A DNA stretch of 64,000 nt, taken from the NCBI GenBank assembly GCA_963931185.1, contig OZ006981.1:766859-830858 (forward strand), written 5' to 3'. Position 1 is the stretch's first letter. Each line of letters starts with the position of its first letter. Made by a program: the position numbers and the translations under genes. Origin of the DNA: an uncultured Bacilli bacterium (GTDB taxonomy: Bacteria; Bacillota_I; Bacilli_A; RF39; UBA660). The notes below the pieces were generated by a model. It saw nothing but the letters and a program-made list of their open reading frames with translations, did not search any database and was not told the origin of the DNA. This document shows, one piece after another, positions 8,912 through 60,069 of the stretch.

Positions 8912-8956
8912 TAAAATTTATATTAATTAAAAGAGCAATTTAGTTGCTCATTTTTT

Positions 8957-10305: not shown

Positions 10306-10974
10306 ATGATAGGTAATAGTTGGGATATTTTATTAAGCGAAGAATATAAAAAGGATTATTTTAAAAATTTAAAAGATTTTGTAATATCAGAGTATAAAAA
10401 TAAAATAGTTTATCCTAAAATATCAGAAATATTTAAAGCTTTTATAGAAACAAGTTATGAAGATGTTAAAGTTGTTATTTTAGGACAAGATCCATATCAT
10501 GGTGAAAATGAAGCTGAAGGACTTTCTTTTTCTGTTAAAATAGGAATAACTAAGCCACCATCATTAATAAACATTTTTACAGAATTAAAAGATGATTTGG
10601 GTTGTAATATACCAAACCATGGTAGTTTAATTTCTTGGGCAAAACAAGGAGTATTATTGTTAAATTCAACATTAACAGTAGTAAAAGACACTCCAAAGTC
10701 ACATAGTAATAAAGGTTGGGAAATATTTACAGATGAAGTTATTAAAATTATAAACCAAAAAAACAAACCAGTAGTATTTATTTTATGGGGAAGTGATGCA
10801 AGAAGTAAAAAACAATTAATAAATAATCCTATACATCATATTATTGAGTCACCCCACCCATCTCCATTATCAGCATATCGCGGTTTCTTTGGAAGTAAAC
10901 CATTTTCTAGAACTAATAATTTTTTAATAAAAAATGGCATTAAACCAATTGATTGGGAAATAAAAGATATTTGA
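10306..10974 (+). CDS. ung: Uracil-DNA glycosylase
   Basis: GQDPYHG and HPSPLS motifs. Confidence 0.9.
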   Translation: MIGNSWDILLSEEYKKDYFKNLKDFVISEYKNKIVYPKISEIFKAFIETSYEDVKVVILGQDPYHGENEAEGLSFSVKIGITKPPSLINIFTELKDDLGCNIPNHGSLISWAKQGVLLLNSTLTVVKDTPKSHSNKGWEIFTDEVIKIINQKNKPVVFILWGSDARSKKQLINNPIHHIIESPHPSPLSAYRGFFGSKPFSRTNNFLIKNGIKPIDWEIKDI

Positions 10975-10975
10975 T

Positions 10976-11515
10976 TTACTGTTTTAGTATTTCAAATATC
11001 TCTTCTTTTTCATTAGAATAAAAATCTTTAAATTTATATTTGCAAATTTTTGCAATAATATTAGATGGAAAACATTTTATAAGATTATTATAAGTAACAA
11101 CATTATCATTGTAATATCTTTCAGAAGCAAGACATTCAGTATTTAAATTATAGAGTTCTTTTATTACTAGCATTTCATCATCATCAAAAATAATATCTTT
11201 ATCATAGTCAGTTATTTCTAAAATTTTTTTATTATATTTGTCTAACTCATTATTAAGTTCAAATGTATTTAATTCTTGTTTCTCAACTTTATCTAAACCT
11301 GAAAATTTGTAATTTTCTTTTTTATCTTCTATAAAATTCTTAATTCTTAACATTAATTCTAATCTTTTTTTTAATAAAATATTTATATTTTCTTCTGCTT
11401 CACTTATTTTTATAATAGCATTTTGAAATTTGTTATAATTAATTGCATATATAGAAAGTAATAATGCTGTAATAACAATAACTATAACAATAACAATAAG
11501 AATATATATAATCAT
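10976..11515 (-). CDS. LemA family protein
   Basis: N-terminal TM segment plus the LemA signature (ERYYNDNVVTYNNLIKCFPSNIIAKI). Confidence 0.7.
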   Translation of the reverse strand: MIIYILIVIVIVIVITALLLSIYAINYNKFQNAIIKISEAEENINILLKKRLELMLRIKNFIEDKKENYKFSGLDKVEKQELNTFELNNELDKYNKKILEITDYDKDIIFDDDEMLVIKELYNLNTECLASERYYNDNVVTYNNLIKCFPSNIIAKICKYKFKDFYSNEKEEIFEILKQ

Positions 11516-45346: not shown

Positions 45347-46021
45347 ATGGATATACTATTATTATTATTAGCAGTTATTATTACATTTTCAGCACAAATA
45401 TATGTATCCACAACTTACAATAAAAATAAAAACATAAAAGCAGAGAAAAATATAACTGGATTTGAAGTTGCTAGAACAATCCTTGATAGTTATGGATTAA
45501 ACAATATTTATATAACAGAAACAAATGGCTTTTTATCAGACCATTATGATCCTACAAGAAAAGTAATAAGATTGTCCAAGGAAGTTTTTCATGGCAATAG
45601 CATTGCAAGTTTTTCTGTAGCAGCTCATGAAGTTGGTCATGCTATACAAGATAAAACTGGATATCAATTTATGAAATTTAGAAGCCTAATTTTTCCGCTA
45701 GTCAATTTTGCATCATATTCCGGTTATTTCGCAATATTAATTGGTATTTTGTTGAATTCGATTAATTTTATATGGTTGGGAATATCGTTAGAAATTATTA
45801 TACTGCTATTTCAAATGGTTACATTGCCAGTAGAATTTGATGCTTCAAATAGAGCGTTAAAAGAATTAAAAAAACATAAAATATTAACAAAAAAAGAATT
45901 GATAAAAAGTAAGACAATGTTAACTGCAGCAGCGTTAACATATATTGCCAGTGTATTGAACACAATTTTGCAAATTTTAAGATTGATAATAATTTTTGGA
46001 AATAGTAATACTGAGAAATAA
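45347..46021 (+). CDS. Membrane zinc metallopeptidase (Zn_peptidase_2/YugP-like)
   Basis: HEVGHAIQ motif and TM segments. Confidence 0.65.
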   Translation: MDILLLLLAVIITFSAQIYVSTTYNKNKNIKAEKNITGFEVARTILDSYGLNNIYITETNGFLSDHYDPTRKVIRLSKEVFHGNSIASFSVAAHEVGHAIQDKTGYQFMKFRSLIFPLVNFASYSGYFAILIGILLNSINFIWLGISLEIIILLFQMVTLPVEFDASNRALKELKKHKILTKKELIKSKTMLTAAALTYIASVLNTILQILRLIIIFGNSNTEK

Positions 46022-46025
46022 TAAA

Positions 46026-47267
46026 TTGAAAAAAACAATTGAGAATAATTTTGATTCAATCTTAAAATATTTTATAATAAGTCAGCCATTTTTAGATGCA
46101 ATAAATGCATTTCTTATAAATATATGTGGGATTAATACTACTATTGGTATAGTTATTCGTGGCCTTTTTTTACTTTTTGTAGTTTTATCAGTTGCATTGA
46201 TATATAAAAAAAAGTATGCTATGTATTATTATTTTATAATTTTTATATATGGTTTACTATATATTATAGGAAACAGTATTTATAAAGTGCAAAATAATAA
46301 CATTTTGGAAATAAAAGAAATGATAAAAACATTTTATTTCCCTGTATTATTAATATCTTTGTATTCTATTAGAGACAAAATTAATATAAAAGCTAATTAT
46401 TTATTATATACAATTGGCATCTACCTAATTTTTCTTTTTATTCCAATAATTTTTAATACTGGATTTGAAAGCTATGAAATAACAAAAACAGGAACCATAG
46501 GAATATTTTATTCGGCAAATGAAATAAGTGCTATTTTATCTATCTTATTTCCTTTTATTTTTTTATTAATTAATAATAATAAAATTTTTTCGTTTTTGAT
46601 TATGGTCGTTGGTTATATAATAGTTATATTAAACATTGGAACTAAAACGCCAATAATTTCATTGATAATAACTTGCTTGATAGTATTAGCAATGATTATA
46701 ATAAAAAATATTAAAGAAAAAAAATATAAAAAAATATACTATATCGTAATAATAATATTAATATCTGCTGCTTCAATTACATTGTTTTTGCCTAAAACAG
46801 CTTTTTATAGGAATCTAAAGGTTCATTTAGAATTCTTACAAATAGAAAATATAGCCGATGTATTTAAAAAGAAAAAAATGATAGATCATTTTATTTTTAG
46901 CGAACGACTATCATTCCTCGATGATAAAAATATTATATATGAGCAAAAAAACTGTTATCAAAAATTATTTGGAATTGGTTATTATGATGAAGGCAAAGCA
47001 ATGAAGTTAATTGAAATGGATTATTTTGATGTATATTATAATCACGGAATAATAGGATATATTTTATATTTTTCAGTATATATTTATATATTAATAAAAA
47101 TAATTAAAAATATGATAATAGAAAATAATTTTATCACAGTTAAGGTAATTAGTATAATTTTAATATTGTTATTAACTCTATTTACTGGTCACATAATTGT
47201 AGCACCAGCAGTAAGTTTTCTTTCGATATGTATTATATTGTGTAAAATAGAAAAAAGTCACATTTAA
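46026..47267 (+). CDS. Polytopic membrane protein, possibly O-antigen ligase/Wzy-like
   Basis: About 10 TM helices with a larger loop. No catalytic motif was recognised. The start is uncertain: the track ORF begins at 45996 and overlaps the upstream gene, and TTG 46026 is an alternative. Confidence 0.3.
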   Translation: MKKTIENNFDSILKYFIISQPFLDAINAFLINICGINTTIGIVIRGLFLLFVVLSVALIYKKKYAMYYYFIIFIYGLLYIIGNSIYKVQNNNILEIKEMIKTFYFPVLLISLYSIRDKINIKANYLLYTIGIYLIFLFIPIIFNTGFESYEITKTGTIGIFYSANEISAILSILFPFIFLLINNNKIFSFLIMVVGYIIVILNIGTKTPIISLIITCLIVLAMIIIKNIKEKKYKKIYYIVIIILISAASITLFLPKTAFYRNLKVHLEFLQIENIADVFKKKKMIDHFIFSERLSFLDDKNIIYEQKNCYQKLFGIGYYDEGKAMKLIEMDYFDVYYNHGIIGYILYFSVYIYILIKIIKNMIIENNFITVKVISIILILLLTLFTGHIIVAPAVSFLSICIILCKIEKSHI

Positions 47268-48160: not shown

Positions 48161-48252
48161 ATATGCACATCAAAAAAGTGCAAATGATCTTTGAAAACTG
48201 AGCAAAACGTCAATTACATTAAGTCAGGAAAAAAATAAAATAAATCAAACTT

Positions 48253-49822
<1,570 letters not shown>

Positions 49823-50051
49823 AAGGAGTAAAATTCCTGTATCTGACTTAATAAACGTTTTGCTTGGTTTTGAGAGATCATTTGATTTCTCAAATAGTTC
49901 TTTGAAAACTAGATAATGTGTGTTATTTGCTTTACAACGAGCAAAGTAAATAACAATATAATTGTATTTATTAAGTGTACAATTATTAAGATCTCATCAA
50001 ATTAGGATATATAAATATCAAACAAATGGTGGTTAAATTGCTAAGGGCGCA

Positions 50052-52950
<2,899 letters not shown>

Positions 52951-53017
52951 TTTGTTTTTTTGATTAGATCATGCACATTATCTAAGTTTTCAGAGAACTA
53001 TTGTTAATTGTTATGTT

Positions 53018-53122
53018 TATTGGTGACAATAGCTAAGAGGATACACCTGTTCCCATCCCGAACACAGAAGTTAAGCTCTTAAACGCCGACGATAGTGTAT
53101 GCGAAAATAGGTAGTTGCCAAT
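53018..53122 (+). rRNA. rrf: 5S ribosomal RNA (short, about 104 nt)
   Basis: ...GGTGACAATAGCTAAGAGGATACACCTGTTCCCATCCCGAACACAGAAGTTAAGCTCTTAAACGCCGA... The 3' end is approximate. Confidence 0.8.
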
Positions 53123-53381
53123 ATTTTTTTTTGCAAAAAAATTCATTAATATATGAATTTTTTTTATTTATAAGGAAGTGCGTTTGAGCATACAAATAAA
53201 AAAATGTGATAGAAGTTAAATTATCACGCAATAAATAAACCTACTTATTATGAGAGGTTTTAATTGGAAATGATAGGCCATCACAATAAGGGCATTTTAT
53301 CTCAAAAGACTTTTTAGCATTAATAAATTTTAAAAAAACAAGACGTTCTTAAAAATTAGTAGATAATAAAAACATTTTATA

Positions 53382-53436
53382 AAAGTATTGTGAAAAAAAT
53401 AAAAGTATTGTAAACTTTAAATATAAATAATAATAC
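53382..53436 (+). promoter_or_regulatory. Direct-repeat regulatory module plus a sigma-A-like promoter upstream of the prepilin-like gene
   Basis: AAAGTATTGT at 53382-53391 and 53402-53411. TTGTAA-17-TAATAC at 53408-53436. It is near-identical to 752..800. Confidence 0.5.
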
Positions 53437-53450
53437 TAGGAGTGAATTAT

Positions 53451-55286
53451 ATGAAGAATAAAAAAGGATTTACTTTAATAGAATTATTAGCAGTAATAAT
53501 AATATTAGGAATATTAATGATAATAGCAATACCAGCAGTAACAGAGTATATATCATCATCAAGAAAGAATGCCTATATAACAACAGCATCAAGATATATA
53601 GATGGAGTAAGAAACAAGATAAATGCAGCAGAAATACCGGTCTATGATAAAGAAGCAACTTATTATATACCAGGAAGTTGTGTATCAATGGAAAAAGGTG
53701 GAAATAGTCCATATGGAGACTGGAAAGAGTATTATGTAGTAGTAACATATGATGGAACAGGATATGACTATTATTGGACAAGTAGAGATGAAACAAACAC
53801 AGGAATATATTTAACATATCAAGATTTATTAGATGTTGATAGAATAGAGAATAATGTAACAAGTATCTCTACAAATATTGGTGTAGGAGATAGAGAAAAG
53901 ATATTATTATTAAAGGACAGTTGTAGTATAAATGATGCCGAAGAATTAATAGCAACAAGTAATATTCCAGAAAAAGGAACAAGTGATGGAAGTGAAACAG
54001 AAGAACCAGGTAATATAACATATAAAGAAGAAATATTAAATGGAACAGATCCAAAGTTAGAAGATTCATTAATAGCAGTAACAATAGAAGATGATGGAAC
54101 AGTAAAGAAAGCAGATACAACTACTAAGTGGTATAGTTATGAAGAAAAAAGATGGGCAAATGCCGTAATATTAAAAGATGAAAGTAAGAGTTATAATAAT
54201 GGAGAAGTAATACCAGAAGAAGAAATAGAGAGTTATTTTGTATGGATACCGAAGTATAGTTATAAGTTATGGGATTTAGGAAATTATACAGATGATACAG
54301 CAGTAGATACAAGTAAAGTACATTCAATAGATATAAGATTTGGAACAACCAATACAAGTGATAGTGTAGAAGGAGAATGTACAACACCGAAAGTATCAGG
54401 AGAAAGTGGAAACTGTGAAGTAGGAGATTATATGACCCATCCAGCATTCTTAGCCTTTAATACGACAGGAATGTGGGTAGGAAAGTTTGAAACAGGATAT
54501 GATGGTGCAACAAGTGAAAGGGAAGCGAAAAAAGATACAACAGAAGTAGATAAAATAATAGTAAAACCAAATGTCTACAGTTGGAGATATATTCAATTAG
54601 TCAATTCATTTACAATAAGTTATAATTACCAAAGAGAATTAGATTCTCATATGATGAAGAATACAGAATGGGGAGCAGTAGCCTATTTATCACATTCTAT
54701 TTATGGAATAAATAGTGAAATGAGGATTAATAACTATTCTGAACTAAAAACAGGATATGCAGCAACAACAGAAGAGGGAAGTAGTAGTACAACAGAAGTC
54801 GCAATGTGGAATACTCCTACAGGATATTTAGCAAGTACAACAGGAAATATAACAGGAATATATGATATGTCAGGAGGAGCAGAAGAATATGTAATGGGAG
54901 TAATGAAAGATGCAAATGGCAATTTAATGTCAGGTTGGGATTCTACTTGGAATTCAGGATTTAATGGGACATTAATGGATGGGAGTAGTTTTACAAATGG
55001 AATAGATTTTCCAGAGTCAAAATATTATGATGTTTATAATTATAGTACAAGTGATACTGATTATTCACGAAGAATATTAGGAGATGCAACAGGAGAGATG
55101 GGACCATTTCAAAGTGATATATCGTCATGGTATAGTAATGGTGCACGTTTTCTTAAACCTGACATCCCTTGGTTCTTACGTGGTGGCCACTATTTCAGTA
55201 ATCTTAGATCTGGAGAGTTCTATTTCTACAGCAACCATGGGCATGTTTTCGATATCATTTCCTTCCGTTTGGTCTTGAGTGTATAG
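53451..55286 (+). CDS. Prepilin-type N-terminal cleavage/methylation domain protein with a large extracellular region and an FGE/SUMF1-like C-terminal domain
   Basis: Class III signal MKNKKG|FTLIELLAVIIILGILMIIAIPAV, the type IV pilin motif. The C-terminus carries GIYDMSGGAEEYV and WFLRGGHYFSN, which resemble the FGE-sulfatase-family GxYDMxGNVWEW and RGGSW motifs. Confidence 0.6.
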   Translation: MKNKKGFTLIELLAVIIILGILMIIAIPAVTEYISSSRKNAYITTASRYIDGVRNKINAAEIPVYDKEATYYIPGSCVSMEKGGNSPYGDWKEYYVVVTYDGTGYDYYWTSRDETNTGIYLTYQDLLDVDRIENNVTSISTNIGVGDREKILLLKDSCSINDAEELIATSNIPEKGTSDGSETEEPGNITYKEEILNGTDPKLEDSLIAVTIEDDGTVKKADTTTKWYSYEEKRWANAVILKDESKSYNNGEVIPEEEIESYFVWIPKYSYKLWDLGNYTDDTAVDTSKVHSIDIRFGTTNTSDSVEGECTTPKVSGESGNCEVGDYMTHPAFLAFNTTGMWVGKFETGYDGATSEREAKKDTTEVDKIIVKPNVYSWRYIQLVNSFTISYNYQRELDSHMMKNTEWGAVAYLSHSIYGINSEMRINNYSELKTGYAATTEEGSSSTTEVAMWNTPTGYLASTTGNITGIYDMSGGAEEYVMGVMKDANGNLMSGWDSTWNSGFNGTLMDGSSFTNGIDFPESKYYDVYNYSTSDTDYSRRILGDATGEMGPFQSDISSWYSNGARFLKPDIPWFLRGGHYFSNLRSGEFYFYSNHGHVFDIISFRLVLSV

Positions 55287-55487
55287 TCGTAATACTTAAC
55301 CATGATATTTGTTGTTTGATACATGAACAAAGTATTAATAAATACAAATTTTATATTAAGAAATATTTTAATTATGTCAATTGCAAAAAAGCAAATGACA
55401 TTTTTTTTGCAGTAAATTTTATGTAATATTTTAATAAATAGTTGAATTAAACAATTTATATTTGCTATAATATTTTTGGTGATAAGG

Positions 55488-58009: not shown

Positions 58010-59071
58010 ATGAGTGAAAAGGAAAATTTAAAAAAAAGAATTAACATAAAAAATAAAAAAGATGCGATAAAAAAATTATCTCAGACTACTAAAAAAACAA
58101 AACAAAGTAAAAAAACACTTTCCAATAAAAAAGTAATCACTCATGAAAATAAAAAAACAAGTTCTAAAAGTATAAAAGACAAAAAAGAAAATATCATTTT
58201 ACATAATACGGAAATTGATAAAAAAAATACTAATAAAGAAAAAACAAATTCTAAAAAAACAACTAAAAATAAAAAAGTAGAAAATTCAAAAAATAATATA
58301 AAGACAATTGTTAAAAAAGAAAACAATGAAAATATAAAACAAAATAAAATAAAAAGAATTTCCAATAATTTAGGAAATAAATTAAAAGATAAAATTTTTG
58401 AAGAACTAAAAGATGAAGATTTAAAAAAATCAACAAAAGATAATAAGAAAACAACAAAAAAGTCAAAGCTAATAATATTTTTATTTATCTGCATAGTAAT
58501 TATTGGCATTGTTATATTTGTTAAAAAAAATAATATAATTGATGAAGAATTAAAAAAATACAAAGAATTTTCAATTGGTGAAAAAGTAATACTTTCTGAT
58601 AATTCTATTTGGTACGTAATAGAAAACAGTAGCAGTAATACAAAGACTGTAAAACTTTTAAAAGAAAATCAAATAGATATAAATAACGATGGCAAATTTG
58701 ATAATAATGACAAGATGAAATTCTATAATAAAAATGAGTATTTATTTGATTCAAGTGATAAAGCAAGTATAGCTTATTATCTTAATAATGAATATAAAAA
58801 GTCTATTAGTGAAAAAATTGATGGTATTGAAGCAATTCATCTATTAACATCAAAAGAATATGTAAATATACGAGAAAAGATGGGATATGATTATGAATGG
58901 ACAACAGGAAATTGGTTGGCTAACGAGTCACTAGGCACTTGGTGGTTAGATTCATCTCAAAATGGAAAAATATATGTTGTAAATATAATAGGAAGCTATA
59001 AACTTTCTAATGCAACAGAAGTAAATTATGTAAGACCAGTTATTACTGTTAATAAAGATAGTTTAGAATAA
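58010..59071 (+). CDS. Membrane-anchored protein with an about 150-aa poly-Lys/Asn-rich cytoplasmic N-region, one TM segment, and an extracellular VRPV-motif domain
   Basis: Low-complexity lysine-rich N-terminal region, TM segment LIIFLFICIVIIGIVIFV, and a C-terminal domain ending ...VNYVRPVITVNKDS, similar to the C-terminus of the 41858..43795 protein. Confidence 0.5.
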   Translation: MSEKENLKKRINIKNKKDAIKKLSQTTKKTKQSKKTLSNKKVITHENKKTSSKSIKDKKENIILHNTEIDKKNTNKEKTNSKKTTKNKKVENSKNNIKTIVKKENNENIKQNKIKRISNNLGNKLKDKIFEELKDEDLKKSTKDNKKTTKKSKLIIFLFICIVIIGIVIFVKKNNIIDEELKKYKEFSIGEKVILSDNSIWYVIENSSSNTKTVKLLKENQIDINNDGKFDNNDKMKFYNKNEYLFDSSDKASIAYYLNNEYKKSISEKIDGIEAIHLLTSKEYVNIREKMGYDYEWTTGNWLANESLGTWWLDSSQNGKIYVVNIIGSYKLSNATEVNYVRPVITVNKDSLE

Positions 59072-59100
59072 AAGAGCTTTAATAATTTAAAGCTCTTTTA
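59072..59100. terminator. Bidirectional terminator between convergent genes
   Basis: AAAGAGCTTTA-ataatt-TAAAGCTCTTT with A/T runs on both sides. Confidence 0.7.
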
Positions 59101-60069
59101 AAATCTAAATTTTGGTTTTTTATTTTTTATTTTCCAGTTTAAACCTGTGGAATAAGATAAATTAAATTTAGATATGTCTATTTGTTTATTCTTTTCAAAA
59201 TATAAAAAAACATCATAAATTAAATTGCAACATTTTTCTATTGCAACATTATATAATTCATCAAAAGAAAAATTATATTTTTTATTAGTATCGTATGGAT
59301 ATAGCCAACTTTTCTTAGAATTATTTAAATAATAATCAGGATTTTTATAACTGTAAGAATATGATAAAAATTTAGAATTTAATATTGTTTTAGGACTTAA
59401 AACATCAAAAAATTTGTAACATAATATTTTATAACCATATGGATCATGTCTTAAATATTTAAATGAAAGTTTCATATCATAAATACTTTTTAAATAGTCT
59501 TTTGTAAAATTTTTATAATTAAAAACCTCTAAAAAAGTTTTATCCATAACTACTTGTAATTGATTTGAAAAATTTCTGATTTTAAAAACTTCGCTGTAAA
59601 CCTTATATTTTTTGTTATTAAATCCCTTTTTATTTAACATATAAATATCTAAAAAAGTTTCCATTTCATGATGCTTTGCATTATACTTAAAAGTTTCTTT
59701 TCTTTTTTTGTTAAATATCCCACAATTATATTCAACATATGGATGAATAGTAGAATCTAAGATATAATGTGTAATTAATCCATATACAAAAGTCATAACA
59801 ATAATATTTTTTTCTAGACCATAATCTTTAATATTTTTTAATAAAACATCGAAAAACATATCACATTTATTATGATGAAAAAATCCGGCAAAATCACGTT
59901 TATTTTTGCTTTTTTTTGTTATTGGAAAATAAATATTAAAAAAGTTAAAAGGATCCATACTCTGTGCAAATATAGCCAAATAATTACTATCAAAACTAAT
60001 ATTTTTTTCTTTTTTCAATTTATTCATAACATCGTTAGCAAAGAAAAAATGCGTAACAGTTCCTGCCAT
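59098..60069 (-). CDS. Hypothetical protein, possibly of the zinc-dependent phospholipase C-like family
   Basis: 323 aa with His-rich motifs (MAGTVTHFFFA..., HYILDSTIHP). Weak recognition only. Confidence 0.3.
   Translation of the reverse strand: MAGTVTHFFFANDVMNKLKKEKNISFDSNYLAIFAQSMDPFNFFNIYFPITKKSKNKRDFAGFFHHNKCDMFFDVLLKNIKDYGLEKNIIVMTFVYGLITHYILDSTIHPYVEYNCGIFNKKRKETFKYNAKHHEMETFLDIYMLNKKGFNNKKYKVYSEVFKIRNFSNQLQVVMDKTFLEVFNYKNFTKDYLKSIYDMKLSFKYLRHDPYGYKILCYKFFDVLSPKTILNSKFLSYSYSYKNPDYYLNNSKKSWLYPYDTNKKYNFSFDELYNVAIEKCCNLIYDVFLYFEKNKQIDISKFNLSYSTGLNWKIKNKKPKFRF

Follow-up and report, generated by a model that had tools for sequence, protein, structure and literature searches.

A type IV pilin-fused lectin-fold protein of a Bacilli chromosome is probably a fixed variant of a retroelement-diversified adhesin family

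The 64,000-nucleotide stretch of DNA examined here (the window; contig OZ006981.1, positions 766,859 to 830,858, from an uncultured Bacilli bacterium) contains a gene whose product begins like a type IV pilin and ends in a domain resembling formylglycine-generating enzyme (FGE). The locus raises the question of what kind of protein combines these two parts, and how it came to stand between a 16S-23S-5S rRNA operon (48252-53123) and tsaE/tsaB/rimI/tsaD, a position already described in a first-pass annotation made from the letters of the window and borne out here. The gene probably encodes an exported, ligand-binding protein of the variable class that is diversified by diversity-generating retroelements (DGRs), and is a fixed, archived variant of a family of pilus-displayed adhesins. 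The coordinates of its parts are given in Table 1.

The open reading frame (ORF) is listed on the forward strand as 53442..55286, giving 614 aa from a GTG start. An ATG at 53451 lies 8 nt 3' of an AGGAG sequence and the homologues, without exception, begin with MKNKKGFTLIELL, so the protein (P0255) has 611 aa. The ORF proposed by the first-pass annotation is real, and the coordinates 53451-55286 which it gave hold 611 aa from the ATG rather than the 614 aa assigned to them. The exact product is also on record from ena:ERZ21563600:tig00005504 (~190.6-192.4 kb of 1,015,965 bp) and from a 1,322,312-bp NCBI contig. The N-terminus was matched by Pfam N_methyl (PF07963, E 2.4e-8, 33.7 bits, cut-off 21.2) and by NCBIfam TIGR02532 (29.3 bits, cut-off 16.3), and the residues G-1, F+1 and E+5 are all present in MKNKKG/FTLIE (the slash marks the cleavage site), which confirms the prepilin signal that had been read there, including the conserved glutamate on which that reading was made to depend. 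The cleavage site is followed by the hydrophobic alpha1-N helix FTLIELLAVIIILGILMIIAIPAV, and the full-length model is helical at residues 9-40. Matches of the protein to PDB sequences were confined to the N-terminal helices of pilins, the similarity to pilins stopped by about residue 60, and neither Pfam nor NCBIfam gave a match to the protein beyond the pilin signal. The remainder had been described as Thr/Ser/Glu-rich, which is true in a mild sense only (over the whole protein S 9.7%, T 9.2%, E 7.7%), with the enrichment sitting in a 17-aa linker, residues 176-192, directly after which the homology to paralogues without a pilin part begins. The motifs GIYDMSGGAEEYV and RGGHYFSN, on which the comparison with FGE had been based, were both found.

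The fold of the C-terminal part was examined by structure prediction. A first AlphaFold run, on the full-length protein with 65 close homologues, gave a predicted local distance difference test score (pLDDT) of 46.8 and was unusable. When residues 190-611 were modelled on alignment A3, which holds 113 sequences gathered with redundancy removed around a 33%-identical Clostridium-type member, the pLDDT was 92.9 and the predicted template modelling score 0.94; within the beta-rich subdomain, residues 193-325, this alignment contains invariant W, Y and P columns. Comparison of the model with the PDB using Foldseek gave as best match TaqVP, the DGR variable protein of Thermus aquaticus (5vf4; E 9e-10, probability 1.00), with further matches to PvdO, variants of the Bordetella phage protein Mtd (1yu0-1yu3), EgtB, ToxD, TvpA (2y3c), OvoA and CarF. 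The A3 profile, searched against all PDB sequences, had 5vf4 as its sole match (E 7.2e-4), through an alignment passing HPAF..G.W.G.F, H.M.N.EW.AVA.L and G..D..G..WE.V, and in BFVD the model matched gut-phage tail-fibre proteins and 'sulfatase-modifying factor enzyme-like' proteins. Structure prediction thus bears out the FGE-like fold that the first-pass annotation had suspected, and in the model the C-terminal domain has a C-type-lectin fold (CLec) of the FGE subtype, closest to TaqVP.

An enzymatic role, which had been offered beside a binding role, did not stand. PF03781 gave no match to the window protein at E<=1, and three distant family members matched it below threshold (E 0.0012-0.035, 14-19 bits, cut-off 23.3). 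The only cysteines of the window protein are at positions 77, 158, 310 and 322, with none in residues 323-611, and the catalytic, copper-binding cysteine pair of FGE is therefore absent. Because these cysteines are missing the C-terminal domain is, as judged from its sequence, a binding scaffold rather than an enzyme. Binding is the most reasonable reading of its role, and from there we infer a minor pilin or tip adhesin. The ligand would most likely be a glycan or protein at the surface of the host, of a food particle or of another gut microbe.

The C-terminal module is not peculiar to this protein. A first homology search with the window protein gave 7,825 matches, many of them ~460-aa proteins which align to residues 190-611 only and have a plain hydrophobic N-terminus instead of the pilin part; in other members there are extra domains at the N-terminus, or a LamG domain has been inserted. 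When residues 190-611 were searched exhaustively with HMMER, 3,636 clusters at 50% identity were returned (E<=1e-3), so that the 420-aa module represents a large family without a Pfam model. NCBIfam did not recognise the N-termini of the non-pilin paralogues, for which no likeness to TasA/SipW-type signals (..GYGAFNAE..) is claimed here. In two loci (L064:9743-11941 and L077:6540-8615) a LamG/concanavalin-A-like domain lies inside the N-terminal subdomain of the module (PF13385, E 2e-13, L064 scanned), and three giant proteins, P0464 (3713 aa), P0519 (4516 aa) and P0563 (4340 aa), contain 5-7 modules in tandem. Across the family the last ~50 residues keep a fixed framework, ..FV.SS.PWF.RGG.Y..GSGAGAF.F....G.A.S..SFRLVL..., and the positions between are filled by N, Y, S, G, H, D, F and the like. 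The supposed isolated protein of unusual architecture is instead a member of a large family of paralogues; in the same genome the family's founding member is a DGR target.

The retroelement is seen most simply in relatives. At two loci, L006 of the same-genus metagenome-assembled genome (MAG) CALVZC01 and L040, an ORF resembling a reverse transcriptase (RT) lies just 3' of a paralogue. The last 142-150 nt of the paralogue, the variable region (VR), recur 352-360 nt downstream at 89-91% identity as a template repeat (TR), and the mismatches between the two are all at adenines of the downstream copy (15/15 in L006, 13/13 in L040). The TR is followed by genes for a MutS_I-like protein of 128 aa (Pfam 3e-9), a bAvd protein (PF22296, 1.4e-17) and an RVT_1 RT (1.2e-15); MutS-like (MSL) accessory genes, always found with avd, are a known minority type of DGR (PMC5758913). 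The genome of the window itself also has a complete DGR, at a distance of ~675 kb from the gene (L095, tig00005504:863569-875925), in the order RecD2, a 51-aa ORF, a pilin-fused target of 654 aa, TR (L095:5285-5426), a 127-aa MSL, Avd (NCBIfam DivGenRetAVD, 4.5e-19), an RT of 342 aa bearing IGNYTSQ and YMDD, and a two-component system. Clusters of the cassette proteins also have members on the 1,322,312-bp contig. The VR of this cis target (L095:4932-5073) differs from the TR at 16 A sites and 2 non-A sites, and the cis VRs of five strains differ among themselves at TR-A sites. The TR itself differs at 2/142 positions (98.6% identity) between genomes whose housekeeping DNA is ~90-92% identical. 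When JGI metagenome contigs, a collection that probably does not include this organism, were scanned for the exact pattern of the unmutated TR, there was no match. The paralogues of CALVZC01 form a series with 0, 2, 5, 8, 9 and so on up to 71 non-A mismatches to the TR, in which the A-site mismatches remain at 14-22 throughout, showing that the A sites are saturated in every copy whatever its age.

The pilin-fused targets adjacent to a DGR (L095:3112-3175; L002, L006/L094, L085/L086, L096, L097) have a different leader, MNN.NTNKYSS(G)nHFTK.KG/FTLIE, in which a poly-G tract within the coding sequence has the length G5, G6, G8 or G11 (in frame), or else G10 (out of frame). Where the tract is out of frame, in L096, the gene is called from a later start that leaves out the pilin signal. 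From its sequence the leader looks like slipped-strand phase variation layered over DGR diversification. The window copy has no poly-G tract.

The C-terminal 47 residues of the window protein, which bear the motifs named above, are a homologue of the DGR variable region, and their relation to the TR of the same genome was used to examine whether this copy is still diversified. The window VR differs from the TR at 16/33 A sites and at 29/109 non-A sites, along its whole length, with 19/29 of the non-A mismatches in the central tract; the other paralogues of the genome have 21 (P0002), 30 (P0006) and 21 (split copy). A non-adenine change is needed for 27/47 codons, including AAA and TTA where the TR has AAC, and 5 of the last 28 nt do not agree with the TR (own count). 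An excess of mismatches at A sites is nevertheless kept (48% against 27%, Fisher p 0.03), as would fit a variant made by the DGR long ago and subject to drift since then. A 20-nt palindrome, TTTTTCCACNTGTGGAAAAA, starts at the stop codon in the active target and in most paralogues (downstream sequences of 73 paralogues), and at this site the window has TCGTAATA followed by the common 3' flank. DNA folding gave a 10-bp stem for the cis target of the same genome (z -4.95) and no stem for the window (z +0.84). Among the 8 strains of the 90%-identity cluster the last 57 residues are identical, and the other seven proteins differ from that of the window at 19-23 positions elsewhere; in the sister cluster the tail shows few differences, which fall on A-derived positions. 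Set against the properties of an active target, the window copy shares its genome with an RT, an Avd and a TR (L095), but its VR/TR differences are not confined to adenines (16 A-site, 29 non-A), its VR end and downstream sequence do not have the form of an initiation of mutagenic homing (IMH)-like site with a stem-loop, and no variation at A-derived sites was seen among the 8 cluster members at protein level. A TR-like repeat of the gene's 3' end was also sought inside the window, with chance matches only.

That the eight identical VRs represent one clone was considered and found unlikely, as the eight proteins differ among themselves at scattered positions in the protein-level comparison. 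Separately, the window allele carries a block of substitutions at residues 204-305 (~54060-54365) relative to most of the seven other strains, with the rest nearly identical; these are E204S, D205G and S206A, in six strains also A209P, V210I, D214N and T224N, and a second group at 281-305. The block suggests gene conversion from another paralogue.

The other copies show how the window gene may have reached its position. CALVZC01 (uncultured Bacilli BRZ_FK__bin67, from a one-genome-per-species collection) has at least 25 loci of the family, at least 6 of them pilin-fused and many at contig ends. The window's own genome has at least 6 dispersed paralogues, the window copy included, and the window protein, P0002, P0006, P0272/P0273 and the DGR cassette are all on tig00005504. 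P0002 stands alone between rpoC and rpsL, P0006 between a sigE-like gene and murG, and the split paralogue (273 + 324 aa; L091:9020-10975) between an Hpt-response-regulator gene and a dacF-like gene. The split is caused by a frameshift or stop, and this copy may be a pseudogene. The loci L082, L083 and L091 (tig00005504: 324909-346744, 756250-778070 and 627524-648498) hold solo paralogues between core operons with blocks of ~75 nt upstream and ~120 nt downstream in common. The upstream block of the window gene is found 5' of these three and is 89-96% identical to the upstream regions of the paralogues L001, L003, L005 and L007 (blastn); a consensus promoter scan of this region gave nothing above chance. 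The downstream block ends in a terminator-like hairpin (55374-55401, followed by T8; RNA fold -10.5 kcal/mol), which a consensus terminator scan requiring 3 G-C pairs does not call. From the upstream and downstream blocks shared by L082, L083 and L091 the unit that was copied seems to be the gene from promoter to terminator.

In a sister species (L020:9620-11466) a 460-aa anchor-type paralogue lies between the orthologues of two genes that are adjacent in the window (8912-8956); it has come in with its own upstream region, where a poly-G pilin leader persists in decayed form. Closely related species thus differ in how many copies of the family they have and in where these are inserted. Synteny with tsaE was found at 0/79 loci from the genome scan, which left no sister-species orthologue of the window gene among them for comparison. 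In L092 (ena:ERZ21549445 NODE_847) rpoC is joined to the split paralogue followed by the dacF-like neighbourhood, loci which are ~300 kb apart on tig00005504, and this junction is either a recombination between paralogues or a misassembly across the repeat.

The pilin signal raises the question of the machinery which would process and display the protein. A signal of this class needs an A24 peptidase for its processing. The first-pass annotation had found no pilus genes nearby, and for the window this is true: a motif search gave no T2SSE-type Walker A and no A24 GGGDxK (Pfam was not run on every window ORF), tblastn with the PilC and PilD of a relative gave no match, and no second class III signal and no paralogue are present elsewhere in the 64 kb. 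In CALVZC01 adjacent genes for a T2SSF/PilC-like protein (5e-45) and an A24_N prepilin peptidase (1.4e-33) were found at L016, on the DGR contig and ~13 kb upstream of the DGR. Relatives also encode short stand-alone pilin-like ORFs with GFTLIELL (L017:9971-10636 and ~10720-11065, L023:11413, L043:10379), which are candidates for the major subunit of a filament. An extracellular role of the module is supported by other paralogues, in which it follows plain hydrophobic sequences of signal or anchor type or is accompanied by LamG.

In the explanation favoured here a DGR-diversified gene would have been duplicated into a family in which each copy captured a different VR variant, and the window copy would be a fixed variant no longer rewritten by the retroelement. 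It is regarded as fixed because of its many non-adenine differences from the TR, the missing palindrome after the stop codon and the invariance of its VR among strains. Once a prepilin peptidase had cleaved the protein, its N-terminal helix would serve as a membrane anchor or insert into a type IV filament, and in either position the lectin-like face for binding would be shown beyond the cell wall. We favour a subunit of low abundance or at the tip, which is the probable place in a filament given the size of the protein, or a membrane-anchored stalk, because the protein is very large for a pilin, carries a binding domain as cargo and belongs to a family whose module also occurs behind other membrane or secretion signals. 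A wider scenario, possible but on balance doubtful, is that the lineage runs a 'diversify, then duplicate and freeze' system. Here a single chromosomal DGR, beside a type IV pilin-fused adhesin whose leader has a poly-G tract of strain-dependent length, which is typical of phase variation, would continually make binding variants, and whole promoter-to-terminator units would be copied into intergenic sites (between rRNA and tsaE, rpoC and rpsL, and the sigE-like gene and murG). Loss of the recognition hairpin would shield a copy from rewriting, and copies would accumulate as a heritable repertoire of fixed specificities, the window gene being one shown on a type IV filament. Such a repertoire would reach at least 25 genes, an estimated ~3-4% of a genome of 1.0-1.3 Mb.

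The proposed frozen state of the window copy is where other explanations come closest. It is unlikely that the gene is still an active remote (trans) target, served by the known TR with short-tract homing or by a second TR. The 29 non-A mismatches extend over the whole 142 nt with 19 of them in the central tract, the AAA and TTA codons are unreachable from AAC by adenine mutagenesis, the stop codon has no hairpin beside it, 8 strains have an identical VR, and no TR-like repeat was found in the window or in ~60 kb of same-genome loci (L082-L084, L091, L095). What speaks for continuing activity is the A-site excess still present in the VR (p 0.03), the occurrence in the sister MAG of dispersed paralogues with few non-A mismatches and saturated A sites (L008 with 2, L021 with 5, L011 with 8, 1 central), and the documented existence of targets >100 kb from the RT in cellular DGRs (PMC5758913). 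The lost hairpin and the divergence from the TR could also mark the gene as a relic in decay, once a DGR target, which has stayed intact by chance and has no function now; another paralogue of the same genome is split into 273 + 324 aa, and copy number varies between species. Such a relic is improbable, however, for a gene with an intact ORF of 611 codons behind a strong ribosome-binding site and a conserved upstream block, and with a terminator-like hairpin, which is full length in 8 strains and retains all A3-invariant residues (invariance scored with the window sequence included). Strict conservation of its VR, alongside variation in other parts, suggests that the binding face is under purifying selection.

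The two ends of the protein each suggest another assignment. From the N-terminus alone, with its canonical prepilin signal and its resemblance to ComGC, GspG and PilA, it could be a normal structural pilin, or a pseudopilin of the competence type, with a large C-terminal part that plays no role in binding. This is very improbable, since 611 aa is three to five times the size of a major pilin, pilin similarity is gone by about residue 60, the same C-terminal module occurs behind non-pilin anchors, and there is no com/pil operon context in the window. A competence pseudopilin in particular was rejected on the missing comG context and the restriction of similarity to the first ~30-60 residues. 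From the C-terminus it could be an exported FGE/SUMF1-like enzyme, formylglycine-generating or a related oxidase, brought to the surface by the pilin signal, as the FGE-subtype CLec fold, the enzymes PvdO, EgtB, OvoA and ToxD among the Foldseek matches and the sub-threshold PF03781 matches in relatives might suggest. That assignment is scarcely credible: besides the lack of any cysteine in 323-611 and of a PF03781 match at E<=1, structure and sequence both match best to a DGR variable protein that is not an enzyme, and it is the family's hypervariable segment that corresponds to the active site of FGE. The authors of the TaqVP study judged FGE activity unlikely for that class (PMC6328139).

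Several points weigh against the reading of the window protein as a fixed, pilus-displayed DGR variant. Its export, cleavage and binding are computational predictions. The PilC and PilD genes were seen in a sister species and not in the window's own genome, and a search for the T2SSE Walker A motif gave no PilB-type ATPase in the window or in any fetched locus. In the pilin-like head, residues 41-175 of the full-length model are of low confidence (pLDDT ~30-60), and the Foldseek template modelling scores are modest (0.40-0.46) beside the strong E-values. There is no TR, RT or Avd in the 64-kb window, and the link to the DGR is one of paralogy and a common genome only. A second TR which fits the window copy may exist, as the repeat search covered the window and ~60 kb of same-genome loci. 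Finally, eight strains are a small sample, in which the identity of the VR was seen at protein level only.

Table 1. Parts of the pilin-fused gene and its flanking sequences (positions in the window)
Feature	Position	Strand	Details
Upstream block, promoter-like 5' untranslated region	53375..53450	+	two TAAAAGTATTGT copies and AGGAG (53438-53442); common to dispersed pilin-fused paralogues
Gene (protein P0255)	53451..55286	+	611 codons and TAG stop; pilin-fused paralogue of DGR variable proteins
Class III signal MKNKKG/FTLIELL and hydrophobic N-terminal helix	53451..53531	+	residues 1-27; PF07963, TIGR02532
Pilin-like head region	53532..53975	+	residues 28-175; BLASTP 44% identity (1-59) to a relative's 189-aa stand-alone pilin-like ORF
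Ser/Thr/Glu-rich linker	53976..54026	+	residues 176-192; S+T+E 47%
Beta-rich N-terminal subdomain of the 420-aa module	54027..54425	+	residues 193-325; model m5fa5c1829f80, pLDDT >=80, mostly 90-98
FGE-subtype C-type-lectin domain	54426..55283	+	residues 326-611; Foldseek, family profile
VR-like region	55142..55283	+	142 nt homologous to DGR VR/TR; static in the window copy
Post-stop site	55287..55294	+	only 8 nt, TCGTAATA, where the active target and most paralogues have the 20-nt palindrome TTTTTCCACNTGTGGAAAAA
3' flank common to paralogues (CTTAACC.TGAT...)	55295..55409	+	blastn 75-80% identity; ends in AT-rich terminator-like hairpin

Other features were observed at some distance from the gene. 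Positions 1-551 of the window are 99.8% identical to L043:9627-10177 of the sister MAG, where nearby housekeeping DNA is ~90-92% identical. A T-box leader was found at 1471-1709 (+; 130 bits), an O-antigen-ligase-like membrane protein at 45996-47267 (+; PF13425, 2.4e-55) and a zinc-dependent phospholipase C-like protein at 59098-60069 (-; PF00882, 5.5e-11). The ORF at 58010-59071 (+) encodes a 353-aa protein, to which Pfam gave no match; its N-terminal half is very rich in Lys, its C-terminal domain is rich in Trp/Tyr, and it has one hydrophobic segment.

DGRs are to our knowledge the only prokaryotic system of targeted protein hypermutation, and they are densest in the gut. The cellular display platforms that we know of are lipoproteins and, in Bacteroides, the tips of type V pili; if the present reading is true, the type IV pilin front end would be a third such platform, in a Gram-positive-type lineage. 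As the copies range from perfectly TR-templated to fully decayed, the fate of DGR variants, whether fixation, archiving or loss, could be read from genomes. The 420-aa module, with its 3,636 clusters, can now be annotated as a DGR-type lectin-fold binding module, and DGR finders which demand A-only mismatches or an adjacent RT will overlook most of its members. A large metagenome survey of DGRs states that remote targets are invisible to its method (PMC8144416), and 'GspG-type pilin' domains among DGR targets have been mentioned in passing (PMC11661182). A literature search for DGRs with 'type IV pilin' or 'prepilin' found no description. DGR variable proteins with a CLec fold, remote targets and accessory genes of the MSL type are already established (PMC5758913; PMC6328139), while the fusion to a type IV pilin, the size of the paralogue family in a genome of ~1-1.3 Mb and the series of VRs from templated to fossil appear to be undescribed.

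When compared with known systems, the window protein is most like TaqVP (5VF4), its best structural match, which is of the FGE-subtype CLec fold with a C-terminal variable region and a wrapping N-terminal region before it (PMC6328139). TaqVP is, however, a single-domain protein of 381 aa without a pilin N-terminus that lies beside its own DGR, whereas the window protein, ~13-15% identical to it, is pilin-fused, stands 675 kb away from the DGR and does not fit the TR any longer. FGE itself (SUMF1, PF03781) shares the fold subtype, and remnants of its motifs remain in GxYDMxG..E(W/Y)V, RGG and FR.V, but the window protein lacks the catalytic cysteine pair and a PF03781 match, and the segment equivalent to the active site is hypervariable. 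The type IV minor pilins and pseudopilins (ComGC-GG, GspH-K and large tip-associated forms) have the same class III signal with G-1, F+1 and E+5 and the same hydrophobic alpha1-N helix; in contrast to these the window protein has no operon context, is far larger, carries a DGR-type lectin-fold cargo and has a head of putative pilin fold.

The phage BPP-1 DGR has a stem-loop or cruciform just after the VR as its target-recognition element, and the active paralogues here likewise have a stem-loop directly after the VR. BPP-1 Mtd and the phage tail-fibre targets (1yu0-1yu3; gut-phage tail fibres) also share the CLec fold with a C-terminal VR, but Mtd is a trimeric phage receptor-binding protein and the window copy is cellular and without the hairpin. 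TvpA of Treponema denticola is a lipoprotein rather than a pilin fusion, and at most seven non-adjacent DGR targets are reported in this organism, all with A-only differences. Its FGE-type CLec domain and the arrangement of one cellular DGR with several scattered paralogous targets resemble the present case (PMC5758913), which differs in having at least 25 paralogues in one MAG with 0 to 71 non-A mismatches, the window copy standing at the decayed end. In its concept of display the case resembles BfrT, BthT and BunT of Bacteroides, where a gut bacterium also carries a DGR-diversified binding domain on a pilus subunit (bioRxiv 10.1101/2024.11.15.621889). The type V pilins of those Gram-negative bacteria are strand-exchange lipoproteins encoded on integrative and conjugative elements, whereas the system described here has a type IV front end with a class III signal, and is chromosomal and present in many copies in a small-genome Bacilli lineage that bears sporulation genes.

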